Below are positions 2,637-16,353 of a stretch of DNA of 16,353 nucleotides, piece by piece. A program made the translations under genes and the position numbers. Positions within the stretch are counted from its first letter, which is position 1; the number at the start of each line of letters is the position of its first letter. The DNA is from a virus (lineage: Duplodnaviria; Heunggongvirae; Uroviricota; Caudoviricetes), in IMG/VR virus record IMGVR_UViG_2718218139_000006; one strand, written 5' to 3'. The notes beneath the pieces are model-generated. The model saw only the letters and a program-made list of their open reading frames with translations, searched no databases and was not told the origin of the DNA.

Positions 2637-2775
2637 TTGTCCTCCTCTTAGCTGCTGAGGGAGTTTGTGACCGATATATCTGACATGATATTAAGCTTAT
2701 GGCAGGTACATCTCTTGACTGGTCATAGAGATAAATTTAATGCTGAGAAATGCAGTATTGAATTTATCAATTTTT

Positions 2776-3015
2776 CTATTTCCTGCGTATGGCACGTAAC
2801 TTCTTAATGTGTTCTGCCGTTTCGATCTCTTCTGCTATCCGATCTGCATCAGCTTTATTCACAGGTTCAAAGTCATGATTAAAGCGGAACATGCTGGCGA
2901 TACATGTTCTGCCTTTTCGGATGTAGTGAACTTTGTTGTGGGTAGAACGCAGGATTTTGCAGGGAGTGCCGTGGTGATCGACGTACCAGGTGTTAGGAAA
3001 AATGATTCTGAACAT
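2776..3015 (-). CDS. Hypothetical small protein (79 aa) in the early-left operon position
   Basis: ATG ORF with a good Shine-Dalgarno (GAGGTG, 4-nt spacer before the ATG at 3015), co-oriented with xis/int. No family recognised. Confidence 0.5.
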   Translation of the reverse strand: MFRIIFPNTWYVDHHGTPCKILRSTHNKVHYIRKGRTCIASMFRFNHDFEPVNKADADRIAEEIETAEHIKKLRAIRRK

Positions 3016-3062
3016 TTTTACACCTCAATTGGACGATGTTGAAATTTGCTGCTTTGAGGCCA

Positions 3063-3281
3063 TCACAGTCCCCATTGTTTGTTCTTAAGTTCGATCTCCT
3101 CCTGGCAACTTGCACAAGTCCGACAACCCTGAACGGCCAGGCGTCTTCGTTCATCTATCGGATCGCCACACTCACAACAATGAGTGGCAGATATAGCCTG
3201 GTGGTTCAGGCGGCGCATTTTTATTGCTGTGTTGCGCTGTAATTCTTCAATTTCTGATGCTGAATCAATGATGTCTGCCAT
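3063..3281 (-). CDS. DksA/TraR-family C4 zinc-finger protein (phage TraR-like)
   Basis: 72 aa with CxxC-(17 aa)-CxxC (CECGDPIDERRRLAVQGCRTCASCQ) and size like TraR/lambda Orf73-type proteins. Same orientation as the xis/int operon. Confidence 0.65.
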   Translation of the reverse strand: MADIIDSASEIEELQRNTAIKMRRLNHQAISATHCCECGDPIDERRRLAVQGCRTCASCQEEIELKNKQWGL

Positions 3282-3330
3282 CTTTCATTAATCCCTGAAT
3301 TGTTGGTTAATACGCTTGAGGGTGAATGCG

Positions 3331-3356
3331 AATAATAAAAAAGGAGCCTGTAGCTC
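3331..3356 (-). terminator. Candidate intrinsic terminator on the minus strand
   Basis: Minus-strand hairpin GGAGC-TACAG-GCTCC followed by TTTTTTATTATT, just downstream of the 3380 stop. The stem is only 5 bp, so it is weak. Confidence 0.35.
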
Positions 3357-3379
3357 CATGATGATTTTGTTTTTCATGT

Positions 3380-3595
3380 TCACCGTTCCTTAAAGACGCC
3401 GTTTAACATGCCGATCGCCAGGCTTAAATGAGTCGGTGTGAATCCCATCAGCGTTACCGTTTCGCGGTGCTTCTTCAGTACGCTACGGCAAATGTCATCG
3501 ACGTTTTTATCCGGAAACTGCTGTCTGGCTTTTTTGATTTCATAATTAGCCTGACGGGCAATACTGCGAAGGGCGTTTTCTTGCTGAGGTGTCAT
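3380..3595 (-). CDS. Hypothetical small protein (71 aa from the ATG at 3595; an alternative upstream start at 3727 would give 115 aa)
   Basis: ORF MTPQQENALRSIARQANYEIKKARQQ... in early-left orientation, followed by the candidate terminator. Its 5' region overlaps the plus-strand Q-like ORF, so one of the two starts is probably wrong. Confidence 0.35.
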   Translation of the reverse strand: MTPQQENALRSIARQANYEIKKARQQFPDKNVDDICRSVLKKHRETVTLMGFTPTHLSLAIGMLNGVFKER

Positions 3596-4191
3596 TGAAC
3601 AAGTCCCATGTCGGCAAGCATACATACAAACGAAAGAAACCGCGCATTCTGGATGAAGTGACCGGCAGGTTAATAACGCTGGATAATCCGCCGATACCCG
3701 GTAAGCAGTCACGGGCGAAAGGCTCATCCATTGCCCTGGTCAGTCCGATCGAGTTCTCAACATCATCATGGCGCCGCGCGGTTCTGTCTCTCGAAGAACA
3801 TCAGAAAGCGTGGTTGCTGTGGAGTTACAGCGAAAGTGTTCGCTGGGAACATCAGGTCACCATAACGCAGTGGGCATGGAGCGAGTTTAAGACTCTGTTG
3901 GGTACCAGGAAAATTGCAGGTAAGACACTGGAACGTTTGAAGAAGTTGATCTGGCTGGCGGCACAGGATGTGAAGAACGAGCTGGCAGGGCGTAAGACCT
4001 ATGAATACCAGGAGTTGGCATCACTGGTGGGAGTGACATCAAAAAACTGGTCTGAGACATTTACTGAACGCTGGGTTGCAATGAAGCACATTTTTCTACA
4101 GCTTGATAGCCAAGCTTTATTGCTTTTAACGAAAACACGTTCAAAACAAAAGACCACATTTTCACAGCAAGATATTGCAAAACTGGATTAA
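3589..4191 (+). CDS. Putative late-gene regulator (Q-antiterminator-like by position), HTH-like segment near the C-terminus; start uncertain, possibly 5'-truncated
   Basis: 200-codon ORF immediately upstream of a terminator-rich leader and the lysis cassette, the canonical Q position. Contains an HTH-like stretch (YQELASLVGVTSKNWSETF). There is no in-frame ATG near the 5' end (only GTG/TTG candidates) and no recognised similarity to lambda Q. Confidence 0.35.
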   Translation: MSLNKSHVGKHTYKRKKPRILDEVTGRLITLDNPPIPGKQSRAKGSSIALVSPIEFSTSSWRRAVLSLEEHQKAWLLWSYSESVRWEHQVTITQWAWSEFKTLLGTRKIAGKTLERLKKLIWLAAQDVKNELAGRKTYEYQELASLVGVTSKNWSETFTERWVAMKHIFLQLDSQALLLLTKTRSKQKTTFSQQDIAKLD

Positions 4192-4260
4192 AAATCATAT
4201 ATTTTATGTAAATCTGATATTTTGCCAATGTTGTACGCACTGGCCGTAATCCAAATTCAA

Positions 4261-4296
4261 GCCCGAGGTTTAAAGCCTTGGGCTTTTCTGTTTCTG
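4261..4296 (+). terminator. Candidate intrinsic terminator / structured late-leader element
   Basis: Hairpin GCCCGAGG-tttaaag-CCTTGGGC (8 bp with one G-U pair) followed by a U-rich tract (ttttctgtttctg). Confidence 0.45.
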
Positions 4297-4372
4297 GGCG
4301 GTGAGTATCCTTCCAACGTACCCCAGCCAGGGTGTCTTCAGCTGTTGAGTTGATATTGCTTAACCCTCTGTT

Positions 4373-4398
4373 GCCAGCTACATGCTGGCTTTTTTATT
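4373..4398 (+). terminator. Candidate tR'-like intrinsic terminator between the Q-like gene and the lysis genes
   Basis: Hairpin GCCAGC-tacat-GCTGGC followed by TTTTTTATT. Confidence 0.55.
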
Positions 4399-4512
4399 CC
4401 AGGCTTGCGGGGAGCATCAACTCCGTGCTTTGTCGTTAAATTACCCCGTGAGCCTGATTTCTGACATTTAACGTCCCGGCCTTTTGTCGGCGGCGAAACA
4501 TTGGCTATTCAT

Positions 4513-4818
4513 ATGCACGAAAAAGAGAGCCTTGCCGGAGCGTTCTGGCTCGTTTTGCTGATCATCGCAGGTTGGGGCGGTCTGGTCCGCTACCTGATAG
4601 ATGTGAAGCAGAGTAAAGCAACGTGGAGCTGGATAAATGCTTTGGCTCAGATAGTGGTGTCGGGATTCACCGGTGTTATTGGTGGCCTGATCAGTATCGA
4701 AAGTGGATTCAGTATTTACATGATTCTCGCGACAGCGGGGATTAGTGGTGCGATGGGTTCGGTTGCACTGACATACTTCTGGGAACGACTGACAGGGGTG
4801 AAAAATGCAAAATCTTAA
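4513..4818 (+). CDS. Holin (not lambda S-like), about 101 aa from ATG 4513; the ORF track begins at TTG 4501
   Basis: Small protein with several hydrophobic transmembrane-like segments and a charged C-terminus, directly upstream of and overlapping the endolysin gene. Confidence 0.7.
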   Translation: MHEKESLAGAFWLVLLIIAGWGGLVRYLIDVKQSKATWSWINALAQIVVSGFTGVIGGLISIESGFSIYMILATAGISGAMGSVALTYFWERLTGVKNAKS

Positions 4819-5281
4819 TCCTCAGCGTAAAGCTTTCCTCGATATGGTGGCATGGTCAGAAGGAACGGATAACGGACGGCAGAAAACCAGAAATCATGGT
4901 TATGACGTCATTGTAGGCGGAGAGCTATTTACTGATTACTCCGATCACCCTCGCAAACTTGTCACGCTAAACCCCAAACTCAAATCAACAGCAGCCGGAC
5001 GTTATCAGCTTCTTTCACGCTGGTGGGATGCTTACCGTAAGCAGCTTGGCCTGAAAGACTTCTCCCCCAAAAGCCAGGACGCAGTGGCATTGCAGCAGAT
5101 TAAAGAACGTGGCGCTTTACCGATGATTGATCGCGGTGATATTCGTCAGGCAATTGACCGTTGCAGCAATATCTGGGCTTCACTGCCGGGCGCTGGTTAT
5201 GGTCAGTTCGAGCATAAGGCTGACAGCCTGATTGCAAAATTCAAAGAAGCTGGCGGAACGGTCAGAGAGATTGAGGTATGA
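4805..5281 (+). CDS. R: Endolysin R (lytic transglycosylase), lambda R homolog
   Basis: 158 aa; from residue 8 (QRKAFLDM...) onward matches lambda R as I recall it, while the first 7 residues differ. Confidence 0.9.
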
Positions 5282-5739
5282 GCAGAGTAACCGCGATTAT
5301 CTCCGCTCTGGTTATTTGCATCATCGTCTGCCTGTCTTGGGCTGTTAATCATTACCGTGATAACGCCATTACCTACAAGGCCCAGCGCGACAAAAATGCC
5401 AGAGAACTGAAGCTGGCGAACGCGGCAATTACTGACATGCAGATGCGTCAGCGTGATGTTGCTGCGCTCGATGCAAAATACACGAAGGAGTTAGCTGATG
5501 CTAAAGCTGAAAATGATGCTCTGCGTGATGATGTTGCCGCTGGTCGTCGTCGGTTGCACATCAAAGCAGTCTGTCAGTCAGTGCGTGAAGCCACCACCGC
5601 CTCCGGCGTGGATAATGCAGCCTCCCCCCGACTGGCAGACACCGCTGAACGGGATTATTTCACCCTCAGAGAGAGGCTGATCACTATGCAAAAACAACTG
5701 GAAGGAACCCAGAAGTATATTAATGAGCAGTGCAGATAG
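5278..5739 (+). CDS. Rz: Spanin inner-membrane subunit Rz
   Basis: 153 aa, [58 protein letters not shown]..., matching lambda Rz. ATGA start/stop overlap with R. Confidence 0.9.
5498..5680 (+). CDS. Rz1: Spanin outer-membrane lipoprotein subunit Rz1, embedded in the +1 frame of Rz
   Basis: 60 aa, [24 protein letters not shown]... with a lipobox (VVGC) and a proline-rich stretch, matching lambda Rz1. Confidence 0.85.
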
Positions 5740-5740
5740 A

Positions 5741-5762
5741 GTTGCCCATATCGATGGGCAAC
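5741..5762. terminator. Candidate bidirectional terminator hairpin between convergent Rz and bor
   Basis: Perfect 9-bp stem GTTGCCCAT-atcg-ATGGGCAAC lying exactly between the Rz stop (5739) and the bor stop (5771). Confidence 0.5.
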
Positions 5763-5770
5763 TCATGCAA

Positions 5771-6064
5771 TTATTGTGAGCAATACACACGCGCTTCCAG
5801 CGGAGTATAAATGCCTAAAGTAATAAAACCGAGCAATCCATTTACGAATGTTTGCTGGGTTTCTGTTTTAACAACATTTTCTGCGCCGCCACAAATTTTG
5901 GCTGCATCGACAGTTTTCTTCTGCCCAATTCCAGAGACGAAGAAATGGTGGGTGATGGTTTCCTTTGGTGTTACTGCTGCCGGTTTGTTTTGAACAGTAA
6001 ACGTCTGTTGGGCACATCCTGTAATAAGCAGGGCCAGCGCAGTAGCGAGTAGCATTTTTTTCAT
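5771..6064 (-). CDS. bor: Bor lipoprotein (serum-resistance-associated lysogenic conversion protein)
   Basis: 97 aa, MKKMLLATALALLITGCAQQ... with signal peptide and lipobox (LITGC); matches lambda Bor. Confidence 0.9.
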   Translation of the reverse strand: MKKMLLATALALLITGCAQQTFTVQNKPAAVTPKETITHHFFVSGIGQKKTVDAAKICGGAENVVKTETQQTFVNGLLGFITLGIYTPLEARVYCSQ

Positions 6065-6208
6065 GGTGTTATTCCCGATGCTTTTTAAAGTTCGCAGAAT
6101 CGTATGTGTAGAAAATTAAACAAACCCTAAACAAACCCTAAACAATGAGTTGAAATCTCATATTGTTAATATTTATTAATGTATGTCAGATGCGAAGGAT
6201 CGTCACTG

Positions 6209-6274
6209 TATTCCCGGATTAACTATGTCCGCAGCCCTGACAGGGAAACTCCTCTGCGGGAGTGTCCGGGAATA
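6209..6274. repeat. Nested dyad-symmetry element in the bor-downstream intergenic region
   Basis: Perfect 10-bp inverted repeat TATTCCCGGA (6209-6218) / TCCGGGAATA (6265-6274) enclosing an inner inverted repeat CCGCAG (6229-6234) / CTGCGG (6254-6259) and a central CCCTG-a-CAGGG. Confidence 0.6.
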
Positions 6275-6366
6275 ATTAATAACGATGCACACAGGGTTTA
6301 GCGCGTACACGTATTGCATTATGCCAACGCCCCGGTGCTGACACGGAAGAAACCGGACGTTATGAT

Positions 6367-6900
6367 TTAGCGTGGAAAGATTTGTGTAGTGTTCTGAATG
6401 CTCTCAGTAAATAGTAATGAATTATCAAAGGCATAGTAATATCTTTTATGTTCGTGGATATTTGTAACCCATCGGAAAACTCCTGCTTTAGCAAGATTTT
6501 CCCTGTATTGCTGAAATGTGATTTCTCTTGATTTCAACCTATCATAGGACGTTTCTATAAGATGCGTATTTCTTGAGAATTTAACATTTACAACCTTTTT
6601 AAGTCCTTTTATTAACACAGTGTTATCGTTTTCTAACACAATGTGAATATTATCTGTGGCTAGATAGTAAATATAATGTGAGACATTGTGACGTTTTAGT
6701 TCAGAATAAAACAATTCACAGTTTAAATCTTTTCGCACTTGATCGAATATTTCTTTAAAAATGGCAACCTGAGCCATTGGTAAAACCTTCCATGTGATAC
6801 GAGGGCGCGTAGTTTGCATTATCGTTTTTATTGTTTCAATCTGGTCTGACCTCTTTGTGTTTTGTTGATGATTTATGTCAAATATTAGGAATGTTTTCAA
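6367..6900 (-). CDS. Conserved lambdoid late-region hypothetical protein (at the position of the lambda ORF downstream of bor)
   Basis: 177-aa ORF co-oriented with bor. Its position relative to Rz/bor/cos matches an unnamed lambda ORF. Confidence 0.55.
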
Positions 6901-7062
6901 TTAATAGTATTGGTTGCGTAACAAAGTGCGGTCCTGCTGGCATTCTGGAGGGAAATACAACCGACAGATGTATGTAAGGCCAACGTGCTCAAATCTTCAT
7001 ACAGAAAGATTTGAAGTAATATTTTAACCGCTAGATGAAGAGCAAGCGCATGGAGCGACAAA

Positions 7063-7269
7063 ATGAATAAAGAACAATCTGCTGATGATCCCTCCGTGGA
7101 TCTGATTCGTGTAAAAAATATGCTTAATAGCACCATTTCTATGAGTTACCCTGATGTTGTAATTGCATGTATAGAACATAAGGTGTCTCTGGAAGCATTC
7201 AGGGTAATTGAGGCAGCGTTGGTGAAGCACGATAATAATATGAAGGATTATTCCCTGGTGGTTGACTGA
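7063..7269 (+). CDS. Small conserved lambdoid hypothetical protein (68 aa)
   Basis: ATG ORF at the position of a small lambda right-end ORF. Confidence 0.45.
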
Positions 7270-7433
7270 TCACCATAACTGCTAATCATTCAAACTACTT
7301 AACCTGTGACAGAGCCAACACGCAGTCTGTCACTGTCAGGAAAGTGGTAAAACTGCAACTCAATTACTGCAATGCCCTCGTAATTAAGTGAATTTACAAT
7401 ATCGTCCTGTTCGGAGGGAAGAACGCGGGATGT

Positions 7434-7628
7434 TCATTCTTCATCACTTTTAATTGATGTATATGCTCTCTTTTCTGACGTTAGCCTCCGACGGCAGGCT
7501 TCAATGACCCAGGCTGAGAAATTTCCGGACCCTTTTTGATCAAGAGCGATGTTAATTTGTTCAATCATTTGGTTAGGAAAGCGGATGTTGCGGGTTGTTG
7601 TTCTGCGGGTTCTGTTCTTCGTTGACAT
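7434..7628 (-). CDS. Small basic protein, YlcI/DUF3950-like, possible ribbon-helix-helix fold
   Basis: 64 aa, MSTKNRTRRTTTRNIRFPNQMIEQINIALDQKGSGNFSAWVIEACRRRL...; Arg-rich N-terminus followed by a beta-alpha-alpha-like pattern. Resembles the small protein found next to cos/nohD in DLP12-type prophages (from memory). Confidence 0.5.
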   Translation of the reverse strand: MSTKNRTRRTTTRNIRFPNQMIEQINIALDQKGSGNFSAWVIEACRRRLTSEKRAYTSIKSDEE

Positions 7629-7827
7629 GAGGTTGCCCCGTATTCAGTGTCGCTGATTTGTATTGTCTGAAGTTGTTTTTACGTTAAGTTGATGCGGATC
7701 AATTAATACGATACCTGCGTCATAATTGATTATTTGACGTGGTTTGATGGCGTAGATGCACGTTGTGACATGTAGATGATAATTATTATCATTTTGCGGG
7801 TCCTTTCCGGCGATCCGACAGGTTACG

Positions 7828-7839
7828 GGGCGGCGACCT
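7828..7839. other. cosN: the 12-nt lambda cohesive-end sequence GGGCGGCGACCT (terminase nicking site)
   Basis: Exact 12-mer, preceded by lambda right-end sequence (...TCCGACAGGTTACG) and followed by lambda left-end sequence (CGCGGGTTTTCGCTATTTATGAAAATTTTCCGG). Confidence 0.9.
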
Positions 7840-7875
7840 CGCGGGTTTTCGCTATTTATGAAAATTTTCCGGTTT

Positions 7876-7993
7876 AAGGTGTTTCCGTTCTTCTTCGTCG
7901 TAACTTAATGTTTTTATTTAAAATACCCCCTAAAAAGAAAGGAAACGACAGGTGCTGAAAGCGAGCTTTTTGGCCTCTGTCGTTTCCTTTCTC
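7876..7993 (+). promoter_or_regulatory. cosB: terminase small-subunit binding sites R3, R2, R1 with an intervening AT-rich IHF-type site (I1)
   Basis: Three copies of the CGTTTCC core: R3 about 7880-7895, R2 inverted about 7937-7952, R1 about 7975-7993, with an AT-rich segment at 7898-7927. Lies between cosN and nu1 as in lambda. Confidence 0.8.
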
Positions 7994-8016
7994 TGTTTTT
8001 GTCCGTGGAATGAACA

Positions 8017-8536
8017 ATGGAAGTCAACAAAAAGCAGCTGGCTGACATTTTCGGTTCGAGTATCCGTACCATTCAGAACTGGCAGGAACAGGGAATGCCC
8101 GTTCTGCGAGGCGGTGGCAAGGGTAATGAGGTGCTTTATGACTCTGCCGCCGTCATAAAATGGTATGCCGAAAGGGATGCTGAAATTGAGAACGAAAAGC
8201 TGCGCCGGGAGGTTGAAGAACTGCGGCAGGCCAGCGAGACAGATCTCCAGCCAGGGACTATTGAGTACGAACGCCATCGACTTACGCGTGCGCAGGCCGA
8301 CGCACAGGAGCTGAAAAATGCCAGAGACTCCGCTGAAGTGGTGGAAACCGCATTCTGTACTTTCGTGCTGTCGCGGATCGCAGGTGAAATTGCCAGTATT
8401 CTCGACGGGATCCCCCTGTCGGTGCAGCGGCGTTTTCCGGAACTGGAAAACCGACATGTTGATTTCCTGAAACGGGATATCATCAAAGCCATGAACAAAG
8501 CAGCCGCGCTGGATGAACTGATACCGGGGTTGCTGA

Positions 8537-8562
<26 letters not shown>
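8017..8562 (+). CDS. nu1: Terminase small subunit Nu1
   Basis: 181 aa, MEVNKKQLADIFGSSIRTIQNWQEQGMPVLRGGGKGNEVLYD..., matching lambda Nu1 (N-terminal winged HTH). Confidence 0.95.
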
Positions 8563-12056
<3,494 letters not shown>

Positions 12057-12060
12057 CGTC

Positions 12061-12636
12061 ATGTCAGAGCAGAAAAAGACCTGGGCGGCTGAAGACCAGC
12101 TTCGCGGGAGCTGGATGGCAGGCCTGAAGTCCGGCTGGAGTGAGTGGGAAGAGAGCGCCACGGACTGTATGTTGCAGGTAAAAAGTGCAGCCACGCAGAC
12201 CTTTGATGGTATTGCACAGAATATGGCGGCGATGCTGACCGGCAGTGAACAGAACTGGCGTAGCTTCACCCGTTCCGTGCTGTCCATGATGACAGAAATT
12301 CTGCTTAAGCAGGCAATGGTGGGGATTGTCGGGAGTATCGGCAGCGCCATTGGCGGGGCTGTTGGTGGCGGCGCATCCGCGTCAGGCGGTATGGCTTACA
12401 GCCGTGTGTCGACTTTCTCCGGGGATTATCTCCGCGTAACTGACAACAAGGGGAAAACGCACGACGTGCTGACCGGAAGTGATGACGGTCGCCACAGCAA
12501 CACGTCTCTGGCGTGGGGAGCTGGCGTGCAGTTTAACCCGACCGAATCCGTGGCCATTGATATTGCTTATGAAGGCTCCGGCAGTGGCGACTGGCGCACT
12601 GACGGTTTCATCGTGGGTGTCGGTTATAAGTTCTGA
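12061..12636 (+). pseudogene. Chimeric ORF: internal C-terminal segment of tail tape-measure H fused in frame to the C-terminal about 80 residues of outer-membrane protein Lom
   Basis: First 110 residues (MSEQKKTWAAEDQLRG...GGAVGGGASASGG) match the C-terminal region of lambda gpH; the remainder (...SLAWGAGVQFNPTESVAIDIAYEGSGSGDWRTDGFIVGVGYKF) is the Lom/Ail-family C-terminus. Junction near 12388-12393. Confidence 0.8.
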
Positions 12637-12663
12637 TTAGCCAGGTAACACAGTGTTATGACA

Positions 12664-12689
12664 GCCCGCCGGTTCAGGCGGGCTTTTTT
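12664..12689 (+). terminator. Intrinsic terminator downstream of the lom remnant
   Basis: 7-bp GC-rich stem GCCCGCC-ggttca-GGCGGGC followed by TTTTTT. Confidence 0.7.
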
Positions 12690-12700
12690 GTGGGGTGAAT

Positions 12701-15700
12701 ATGGCAGTAAAGATTTCAGGTGTACTGAAAGACGGCACAGGAAAACCGGTAGAGAACTGCACCATTCAACTGAAAGCCAGACGGACCAGCAGCACGGTGG
12801 TGGTGAACACGGTGGCCTCTGAAAATCCGGATGAAGCCGGTCGTTACAGCATGGACGTTGAGTACGGTCAGTACAGCGTCATTCTGTTGGTGGAAGGATT
12901 CCCGCCGTCACATGCCGGGACCATCACCGTGTATGAAGACTCACAACCGGGTACGCTGAATGATTTTCTTGGTGCCATGACGGAGGATGATGCCCGTCCG
13001 GAGGCACTGCGCCGTTTTGAGCTGATGGTGGAAGAGGTGGCGCGTAACGCGTCCGCGGTGGCACAAAACACGGCAGCCGCGAAGAAGTCAGCCGGCGATG
13101 CCAGCACATCTGCCAGTGAGGCGGCAACCCATGCGACTGATGCTGCAGGCTCAGCACGCGCAGCCAGCACGTCAGCCGGACAGGCCGCGTCGTCGGCTCA
13201 GTCAGCGTCTTCCAGCGCAGGAACGGCATCAACAAAGGCCACTGAAGCGGAAAAAAGTGCTGCCGCTGCAGAGTCCTCAAAAAGCGCGGCGGCCACCAGT
13301 GCCGGTGCGGCGAAAACGTCAGAAACGAATGCCGCAGCGTCACAACAATCAGCAGCCACTTCTGCATCCACCGCGACCACGAAAGCGTCAGAAGCTGCCA
13401 CCTCAGCCAGGGATGCGGCGGCCTCAAAAGAGGCAGCGAAATCATCAGAAACGAACGCATCCTCGAGCGCCAGTAGCGCAGCTTCCTCGGCAACGGCGGC
13501 AGGAAATTCCGCGAAGGCGGCAAAAACGTCCGAGACGAACGCTAAGTCTTCTGAGACGGCAGCGGAACAGAGTGCCTCCGCAGCAGCAGACTCAAAAACA
13601 GCGGCTGCATCATCTGCCAGCGCCGCGTCAACAAGTGCCGGGCAGGCCTCAGCCAGTGCCACCGCTGCCGGAAAGTCGGCAGAAAGTGCCGCATCGTCTG
13701 CTTCAACAGCCACAACGAAGGCTGGCGAAGCCACTGAACAGGCCAGCGCAGCAGCGAGTTCTGCTTCCGCAGCGAAGACATCCGAAACGAACGCGAAAGC
13801 GTCGGAAACCAGCGCAGAATCCTCAAAAACGGCTGCCGCATCGTCAGCCAGTTCGGCGGCGTCATCGGCATCATCTGCGTCTGCTTCAAAAGATGAGGCG
13901 ACCAGACAAGCGTCAGCAGCGAAGAGCAGCGCCACGACGGCATCCACGAAGGCGACAGAGGCAGCTGGCAGTGCGACGGCGGCAGCTCAGAGCAAAAGTA
14001 CGGCGGAATCCGCGGCAACGCGCGCCGAGACAGCAGCTAAACGGGCAGAGGATATTGCATCCGCCGTGGCGCTTGAGGATGCGAGCACGACGAAAAAGGG
14101 GATAGTACAGCTCAGCAGTGCGACCAACAGCACTTCCGAGTCACAGGCGGCAACGCCAAAAGCCGTTAAGGCCGCGTATGACCTGGCTAACGGGAAATAC
14201 ACCGCACAGGATGCAACGACAGCACAGAAAGGGATAATCCAGCTAAGCAGCGCGACCAACAGCACATCTGAAACGCTTGCCGCGACACCAAAGGCAGTAA
14301 AAACAGCCTATGACAATGCTGAGAAACGTCTGCAGAAAGATCAGAACGGTGCGGATATCCCTGGCAAAGACACCTTTACGAAAAATATTGGTGCCTGCCG
14401 TGCCTTCGGTGGGTCAGTAAGCACAATAACAGGAAACTGGACGACTGCACAGTTTATCGAGTGGCTGGATTCTCAGGGAGCATTTAACCATCCCTACTGG
14501 ATGTGCAAGGGTTCCTGGTCTTATGGCAATAATAAAATCATTACTGATACTGACTGCGGTAATATTCATCTCGCCGGAGCTGTCATTGAAGTAATGGGGA
14601 TAAAGTCAGCGATGACGATCCGCATTACCACACCGACCACCTCCACTGGTGGTGGAACAACTAACGCCCAGTTTACCTATATTAATCACGGAACAGATTA
14701 TTCACCTGGCTGGCGAAGGGACTATAACTCCAGAAATAAGCCAACGGCATCAGAGATCGGGGCGTTACCGTCAGGTGGAACAGCAGTATCATCAGTTAAT
14801 CTGGCTTCAAAAGGTCGGGTAACCGCGCTGACAGACAATACGCAGGGGGCAACAGGTCTTGAGTTATACGAGGTGTATAACAACGGATATCCAACAGCGT
14901 ATGGAAATATCATTCACCTGAAAGGGATGACAGCCGTTGGCGAAGGTGAGTTACTCATCGGCTGGAGTGGTACAAGCGGTGCTCATGCTCCGGCATTTAT
15001 TCGTTCACGACGGGATACGACCGACGCAAACTGGTCGCCGTGGGCGCAGCTTTACACCTCGGCTCATCCTCCTGCAGAGTTTTATCCAGTCGGTGCACCA
15101 ATCCCGTGGCCATCAGATACCGTTCCGTCTGGTTATGCCCTGATGCAGGGGCAGACTTTTGACAAATCTGCCTACCCGAAACTTGCAGCGGCTTATCCGT
15201 CAGGCGTGATCCCTGATATGCGTGGCTGGACGATTAAGGGCAAACCTGCCAGTGGTCGGGCCGTATTGTCTCAGGAACAGGACGGCATTAAATCGCATAC
15301 CCACAGCGCCAGCGCATCCAGTACGGATTTGGGGACGAAAACCACATCGTCGTTTGATTACGGCACTAAATCCACGAATAACACTGGTGCGCATACCCAT
15401 AGTTTAAGTGGCAGCACGAATGCAGCTGGTAATCACAGCCATAGAGATGGCCGTCGATTTAACCCCAGTGTTTTTAAAGATACTTATCAATATGGTTATA
15501 CAAGCTCAGGTCAAAATACCTGGGGTGTACAAGGCTCAGTAGGTATGTCTACGGGGTGGTTAGCTAATACCAGTACAGATGGTAATCATAGCCACTCACT
15601 GTCCGGCACAGCAGCATCTGCAGGTGCACACGCGCATACTGTCGGTATTGGTGCTCATACGCACTCCGTTGCGATTGGTTCACATGGACACACCATCACC

Positions 15701-15772
15701 GTTAACGCTGCTGGTAACGCGGAAAACACCGTCAAAAACATCGCATTTAACTATATTGTGAGGCTTGCATAA
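12701..15772 (+). CDS. stf: Side tail fibre protein Stf (about 1023 aa from ATG 12701), apparently full length
   Basis: N-terminus [17 protein letters not shown]...; long Ala/Ser/Thr-rich repetitive shaft; two copies of the tail-fibre repeat (G-I-[VI][11 protein letters not shown]...ATPKAVK); His-rich C-terminal tip with repeated HxH motifs ([46 protein letters not shown]), ending ...[11 protein letters not shown] as in lambda Stf / T4 gp37-type fibres. Confidence 0.9.
13080..14060 (+). repeat. Low-complexity GC-rich coding repeat region inside stf (Ala/Ser/Thr-rich shaft)
   Basis: Reiterated motifs such as AKTSETNA, SSASxASTxAxxA; this region generates long artefactual ORFs in the other five frames. 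Confidence 0.8.
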
Positions 15773-16353
15773 TGGCATTCAGAATGAGTGAACAACCACG
15801 GACCATAAAAATTTATAATCTGCTGGCCGGAACTAATGAATTTATTGGTGAAGGTGACGCATATATTCCGCCTCATACAGGTCTGCCAGCAAACAGTACC
15901 GATATTGCACCACCAGATATTCCTGCTGGCTTTGTGGCTGTTTTCAACAGTGATGAGGCATCGTGGCATCTCGTTGAAGACCATCGGGGTAAAACGGTTT
16001 ATGACGTAGCGTCAGGGGACGCGTTATTTATTTCTGAACTCGGTCCGTTACCGGAAAATGTTACCTGGTTATCGCCGGAAGGGGAGTTTCAGAAGTGGAA
16101 CGGCACAGCCTGGGTGAAAGATGCAGAAGCAGAAAAACTGTTCCGGATCCGGGAGGCGGAAGAAACAAAAAACAGCCTGATGCAGGTAGCCAGTGAGCAT
16201 ATTGCGCCACTTCAGGATGCTGTAGATCTGGAGATCGCAACGGAGGAAGAAAACTCGTTGCTGGAAGCCTGGAAGAAGTATCGGGTGTTGCTGAACCGTG
16301 TTGATACATCAACTGCACCTGATATTGAGTGGCCTGTAATACCAGAAGTTTAA
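15772..16353 (+). CDS. tfa: Tail fibre assembly protein Tfa (chaperone)
   Basis: 193 aa, [79 protein letters not shown]..., matching lambda Tfa. TAATG overlap with the stf stop. Confidence 0.9.

Follow-up and report, generated by a model that had tools for sequence, protein, structure and literature searches.

A tandem 11-bp repeat upstream of the prophage gene bor reads as a predicted PhoP box extended by a third half-site

The tandem 11-bp direct repeat upstream of bor, located in a 16,353-nt stretch of phage-derived DNA (hereafter the window, meaning the whole stretch that was analysed), is very probably the promoter-proximal PhoP box of bor and, judged from its sequence, a predicted target of the host response regulator PhoP. 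PhoP is a regulator of the OmpR/PhoB family that is activated by PhoQ at low Mg2+, acid pH, antimicrobial peptides and osmotic upshift, and its receiver domains pair up as dimers. Elements of this class are well described, and borD already provides an example of the two-hexamer form. The three-hexamer allele carried by the window appears to be undescribed and to be the sole new item.

The repeat and the predicted bor promoter

The features of bor and its upstream region are as follows.

5771-6064, minus strand: bor, an intact gene for a 97-aa outer-membrane lipoprotein with the lipobox LITGC (Pfam PF06291 Lambda_Bor, E = 1e-30)
6092, minus strand: predicted transcription start, placed about 7 nt downstream of the -10 hexamer and 25 nt downstream of the box
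6099-6104, minus strand: TACGAT, -10 hexamer predicted from sequence for the PhoP-dependent bor promoter (TAGGAT in iss, E. albertii and MAG homologues)
6117-6145, minus strand: three PhoP half-sites with an 11-bp period, TGTTTA gggtt TGTTTA gggtt TGTTTA (Tandem Repeats Finder and pattern match)
6117-6122, minus strand: half-site H3 (proximal), TGTTTA, which pairs with H2 as the canonical box, 12 nt upstream of the -10 hexamer
6128-6133, minus strand: half-site H2 (middle), TGTTTA, which pairs with H1 as a box located 23 nt upstream of the -10 hexamer
6139-6144, minus strand: half-site H1 (distal), TGTTTA, without a counterpart in the two-hexamer box of relatives

Two exact abutting copies of CAAACCCTAAA were found again at 6121-6131 and 6132-6142, where an earlier note on this DNA had placed a tandem 11-bp direct repeat. 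The periodic tract reported by Tandem Repeats Finder was longer than first described, extending from 6117 to 6145 (period 11, 2.6 copies, 100% matches). An exact 11+11 tandem appeared in 2 of 300 dinucleotide-preserving shuffles of the window, and about 0.004 were expected analytically; because both make such a tandem rare, the repeat is real and not a product of chance. The tract lies in the non-coding gap between bor (5771-6064, minus strand) and a DUF1398/ybcV-like ORF (6367-6900, minus strand), 53-81 nt ahead of the start codon of bor and on the strand opposite to that gene. Its intergenic, non-coding placement next to bor, also described earlier, was confirmed by the ORF and Pfam context. 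No RNA element was found at the repeat in Rfam at E <= 1.

The PhoP box consensus is (T/G)GTTTA-N5-(T/G)GTTTA, and the box is bound by a head-to-tail dimer of phosphorylated PhoP (PMC5775216, PMC3335776). The pattern KGTTTANNNNNKGTTTA matched the minus strand of the window with 0 mismatches at 6128-6144 and at 6117-6133, giving two overlapping perfect PhoP boxes, while the chance expectation was 0.17 matches in the whole window with one mismatch allowed. The hexamer direct repeat that defines a PhoP box is therefore present twice, in overlapping form, and the search for a cognate regulator motif that the earlier note had proposed ended in two perfect consensus matches. Read on the bor strand, the region is ...ctcaT TGTTTA gggtt TGTTTA gggtt TGTTTA attttctacaca TACGAT tctgcgaactttaaaaagcatcgggaataacacc ATG.

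H3 ends at 6117 and is followed by a 12-nt spacer, by TACGAT at 6104-6099 and, 34 nt further on, by the bor ATG. The position of a -35 element (17-nt spacing) is occupied by GGGTTT, which is not usable. The sigma-70 scan found no complete promoter at the repeat, as expected because the promoter would be activator-dependent. Architecture I promoters have a single direct-orientation PhoP box 12 nt upstream of the -10 (PMC3335776), and bor has the direct orientation, the distance of about 12 nt to the -10 and no usable -35. The -10 hexamer and the start near 6092 are predictions.

A promoter-like site at a greater distance from bor, CTGACA-16-AACAAT at 6189-6162, was also reported by the sigma-70 scan, and a promoter that the HK630 record annotates maps to positions 6205-6231 of the window (minus strand), about 60 nt upstream of the repeat. 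This annotated promoter reads TGGACA...TACAAT in lambda, HK630 and K-12 and CGGACA...TACAGT in the window, with one substitution in each hexamer. It was considered as an explanation of the repeat and rejected, both hexamers being substituted in the window. If the upstream promoter-like sites drive bor, the repeat would sit in the 5' UTR.

Known PhoP promoters and conservation of the box

In their upstream regions, lambda bor and borD (vboR/ybcU) of the cryptic K-12 prophage DLP12 have identical sequences. Between the box and the ATG both show the arrangement of the window (TGTTTAgggttTGTTTA, 12 nt, TACGAT, and the ATG 34 nt on), and the gene neighbours Rz, bor and the ybcV-like gene are also the same. 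In contrast to both, the window has one more 11-bp unit, with three hexamers rather than two, and a single SNP within the predicted 5' UTR, at 6087, separates it from lambda (C in lambda, T in the window).

The primary paper on borD/vboR and PhoP is reportedly that of Minagawa in 2003 (J Bacteriol 185:3696). In later work borD (= vboR) is treated as a PhoP-activated gene (PMC5740661, PMC11495068, PMC2789325) and is grouped with mgtA, rstA, slyB and yrbL (PMC2789325). The borD transcript was upregulated together with mgtA, mgrB, phoP and slyB on PhoQ stimulation, and the BorD protein increased in the wild type, with little or no rise in a phoQ deletion (PMC5740661). By analogy with this K-12 borD literature, the near-identical promoter of the window would be PhoP/PhoQ dependent and induced at low Mg2+. 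No paper linking lambda bor explicitly to PhoP was found in the literature searched.

The architecture I promoters of mgtA, phoP, yrbL and slyB (Zwir et al. 2012, PMC3335776) carry the same single box 12 nt upstream of the -10, replacing the -35, and the experimentally supported yrbL box, tTGTTTAggtttTGTTTAa, has almost the same sequence as the box of the window. These promoters have exactly two hexamers, whereas the array of the window is extended upstream by a third. In architecture III (rstA, ompX; PMC3335776), the rstA box is located 23 nt from the -10, like the H1-H2 register of the window. However, the rstA box stands alone and needs the alpha-CTD of RNA polymerase, whereas H1-H2 overlaps the architecture I box by one hexamer. 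The gene iss (increased serum survival), found on ColV-type plasmids, is a bor homologue with the same layout (CATTTAgctatCGTTTA, 12 nt, TAGGAT), but its box consists of two degenerate hexamers and its upstream sequence is unrelated.

For the footprint, bor homologues were gathered by protein and not by DNA pattern. The number of hexamers was exactly two in all lambda-type loci, and their positions relative to the ATG were -69 and -58. Four homologues had unrelated upstream sequence, namely that of E. albertii (about 90% identical), two on other contigs (L217 and L232) and plasmid iss, and these diverged homologues keep CATTTA-N5-(C/T)GTTTA, the 12-nt spacer, TAGGAT and TCTGC. They can be aligned with the lambda type only as far as the distal hexamer. 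Upstream of the iss, E. albertii and MAG homologues, box, spacing and -10 were kept where the flanks diverge. The box was absent upstream of the Salmonella arizonae and diarizonae homologues (69-72% identical), which have a TATAAT-type promoter instead.

Loci L188-L229 came from non-Escherichia 'genomes' (Cohnella, Pedobacter, Flavobacterium, Shewanella, Pseudomonas, MAGs and others) on contigs of about 3.5 kb or about 48 kb, with a Bor 99% identical to that of the window and the lambda-type bor upstream region. These bor contigs are almost certainly contamination of the assemblies by lambda control DNA.

Gene content of the surrounding prophage

The genes surrounding bor are those of the lambda late region.

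3589-4191: Q-like ORF
4501-4818: holin
4805-5281: endolysin
5278-5739: Rz
6367-6900, minus strand: DUF1398/ybcV-like ORF

Beyond the DUF1398 ORF, a ybcW-like ORF, a DUF3950 ORF, Nu1 and terminase A were found. The Q antiterminator ORF (3589-4191) lacks its N-terminus, with the Pfam profile matching from position 34 and the copy of a relative annotated as partial; this truncation is further evidence of a defective prophage. The portal gene is split into ORFs of 312 aa and 135 aa (10662-12636 of the window). Directly after the broken portal gene lies a tape-measure C-terminal / Lom-like fragment, followed by a 1023-aa tail-fibre gene. Head and tail genes have been deleted, and the decayed prophage adjoins icd, with bor still intact.

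An IS3-family element (941-2204) is inserted in the prophage integrase gene, and the closest relative is without this insertion. The element encodes orfA (1838-2140) and orfB (984-1802), both on the minus strand (Pfam HTH_Tnp_1 and rve), and a 3-bp overlap of the BLAST segments at the insertion suggests a target-site duplication. A 733-bp segment of the window (2681-3413) with a DUF4222 ORF (2776-3015) has no counterpart in the closest complete genome.

A second short tandem repeat, TGCGGGTTGCTGTTC (period 15, 2.1 copies), is located at 7589-7618, inside the DUF3950/ylcI-like ORF and upstream of Nu1. Between the convergent genes Rz and bor there is a perfect 10-bp inverted repeat with a 4-nt loop at 5741-5764, AGTTGCCCAT atcg ATGGGCAACT. 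This hairpin is likely a bidirectional terminator, as its position and symmetry would suggest; it has no T-run, and the terminator scan did not call a terminator at 5741-5764.

Distribution, origin and effect of the extra unit

Compared with the window, lambda, HK630 and K-12 each lack one 11-bp unit. With a variable-gap pattern, the extra unit was absent in 96 of 96 IMG/VR loci, all with a gap of 0, and the two-unit pattern gave 0 matches in IMG/VR and 0 in the GTDB species representatives. It was also absent in 158 phage records, all of which align with an 11-nt gap, and at about 1,320 loci in 5,426 complete E. coli genomes, where the best alignments were gapped or ended exactly 11 nt short with the query anchored on either flank. 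No one-hexamer allele was found among the loci surveyed. The Bor of the window is 100% identical to that of 14 IMG/VR loci, and the 14 loci that combine this identical Bor with the SNPs of the window over 200 nt upstream of bor have two hexamers.

Eight metagenome contigs that matched the two-unit pattern (L100-L107) were rejected as unrelated satellite-like arrays without bor flanks. They carry long arrays of CAAACCCTAAA, a unit that includes the telomere-like heptamer CCCTAAA; the match is a coincidence with no link to bor.

The closest complete genome is that of strain 2014C-3011, to which positions 3414-16353 of the window are 99.72% identical (25 mismatches), and the extra unit is the sole indel in the 12,940 aligned bases. 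The three-hexamer allele was found in GCA_003015325.1, 100% identical to the window over 11.7 kb, and also in GCA_003015365.1, which is set apart by a 1-nt indel in Rz and a downstream IS insertion. Because two assemblies that differ elsewhere both carry the extra unit, it is not an artefact. The comparison of copy number across relatives, which the earlier note had suggested, revealed a single state elsewhere, with the lineage of the window alone differing. A hypervariable repeat (VNTR or contingency locus) was rejected, as one state was found across the surveyed loci and only the lineage of the window (two assemblies) departed from it. From the distribution and the form of the tract, the likeliest origin of the extra unit is a recent, lineage-private, slippage-type duplication. 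Any of the repeated units may be the 'new' one; H1 is the half-site that lies beyond the box of the relatives.

In the mechanism that we propose, a dimer of phosphorylated PhoP would bind head-to-tail on two TGTTTA hexamers 11 bp apart, in place of a -35 element, and the bound PhoP would recruit RNA polymerase to TACGAT, with bor transcribed leftward on the minus strand. The two-hexamer box would have gained its third hexamer by an 11-bp duplication in this lineage, presumably through slipped-strand mispairing between the 7-bp direct repeats of the box itself (TAAACAA...TAAACAA on the plus strand, 11 bp apart). H2-H3 would keep the 12-nt distance to the -10 because exactly one period of the periodic tract was duplicated. 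The new H1-H2 register would share H2 and have 23 nt between it and the -10; the additional helical turn would leave it on the same face. PhoP dimers could sit in either register, or a third DNA-binding domain could lengthen the head-to-tail array, as in family members with 2 to 6 11-nt units (PMC3479208). Since the duplication leaves the canonical activating register intact, its effect on expression is expected to be small or nil. The expectation from this layout is that bor would stay PhoP-dependent, with PhoP occupancy unchanged or modestly raised.

The pho boxes of E. coli PhoB are further tandem 11-nt arrays of the OmpR/PhoB family. The DRus of Streptomyces PhoP form tandem arrays of 2 to 6 11-nt units (PMC3479208). 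Both kinds of array share the head-to-tail 11-bp period and the variable number of units with the window, but the regulators and the consensus differ. We know of no description of an odd unit number for enterobacterial PhoP, and a literature search gave no enterobacterial precedent for a three-half-site PhoP box.

One alternative accepts the identity of the PhoP box and disputes the near-neutrality of the extra half-site. It holds that the half-site is adaptive and that three hexamers materially raise or lower the PhoP-dependent expression of bor in this lineage, for instance because dimers can take either of two registers or because the PhoP array is extended. We regard this as possible but unlikely. 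The 23-nt distance of the H1-H2 register from the -10 is the spacing of the functional rstA box (PMC3335776), related regulators use two to six 11-nt units (Streptomyces PhoP, PMC3479208), and the allele is kept in two distinct isolates, in a decayed prophage with bor intact. However, it was found only in a single narrow lineage and did not recur among more than 1,500 other loci, and both registers use one common hexamer and therefore compete.

A neutral slippage duplication in a functionless AT-rich spacer, with no protein bound, would agree with the lack of the second unit in all relatives outside one lineage. This explanation is nevertheless highly improbable: the PhoP consensus is perfect and stands at the canonical distance from the -10, the tract has the promoter sequence of borD, a member of the PhoP regulon, and stays conserved while its flanks do not, and no relative has gained or lost a unit. 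The slippage duplication offered by the earlier note fits the extra unit, every relative examined having one fewer, but not the underlying two-hexamer repeat, which is universal among relatives. In the same way, its rule that absence from relatives would indicate neutrality holds for the extra unit only and fails for the two-hexamer repeat, which is universal in relatives and presumably functional.

Iterons are several direct repeats of about 17-22 bp beside an initiator gene, an AT-rich unwinding element and DnaA boxes. CpxR has the consensus GTAAA-N5-GTAAA, with a period of 10, and PmrA has CTTAAT-N5-CTTAAT. That the tract is an iteron, or an operator of a phage protein or another DNA-binding protein (a replication initiator, CpxR, PmrA or RstA), is very hard to credit. 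Direct repeats in an AT-rich gap are in its favour, but the units are 11 bp and not 17-22 bp, and no rep, origin or regulator gene is near, the neighbours being bor, DUF1398, Rz and terminase genes. The tract was rejected as an iteron on its 11-bp unit, its 2.6 copies and a window without a rep gene, and CpxR and PmrA were rejected on a hexamer or period that does not fit their consensus. The earlier suggestion of an iteron-like binding site survives as a direct-repeat protein-binding site, the predicted PhoP box, and not as an iteron, given the 11-bp units and no replication gene or origin near. A sequencing or assembly artefact, although the extra unit was found in none of the complete genomes or phage records searched, is scarcely believable against the lack of any other indel relative to a 99.7% identical genome and the same allele in GCA_003015325.1 and GCA_003015365.1, which differ from each other.

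With the repeat read as the PhoP box of bor, an anonymous-looking repeat would be explained as a textbook regulatory element. A doubtful further step is to regard the three-hexamer array as a natural gain-of-sensitivity allele through which a domesticated prophage remnant would express more of its serum-resistance lipoprotein. If this is true, one slippage event would have added a second same-face PhoP register, with architectures I and III superimposed, and the locus would be a clean natural case, from an E. coli lineage associated with cattle and humans, of a regulon tuned by half-site expansion. The three-hexamer allele may at most be a handy natural construct for the effect of an in-phase extra half-site on activation by OmpR/PhoB-family regulators, and direct-repeat regulator sites would be substrates for slippage themselves. 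Through a perfect PhoP box, conserved in lambda, DLP12 and plasmid iss, the prophage "moron" bor (serum resistance) would be wired into the PhoP/PhoQ virulence and stress regulon of the host.
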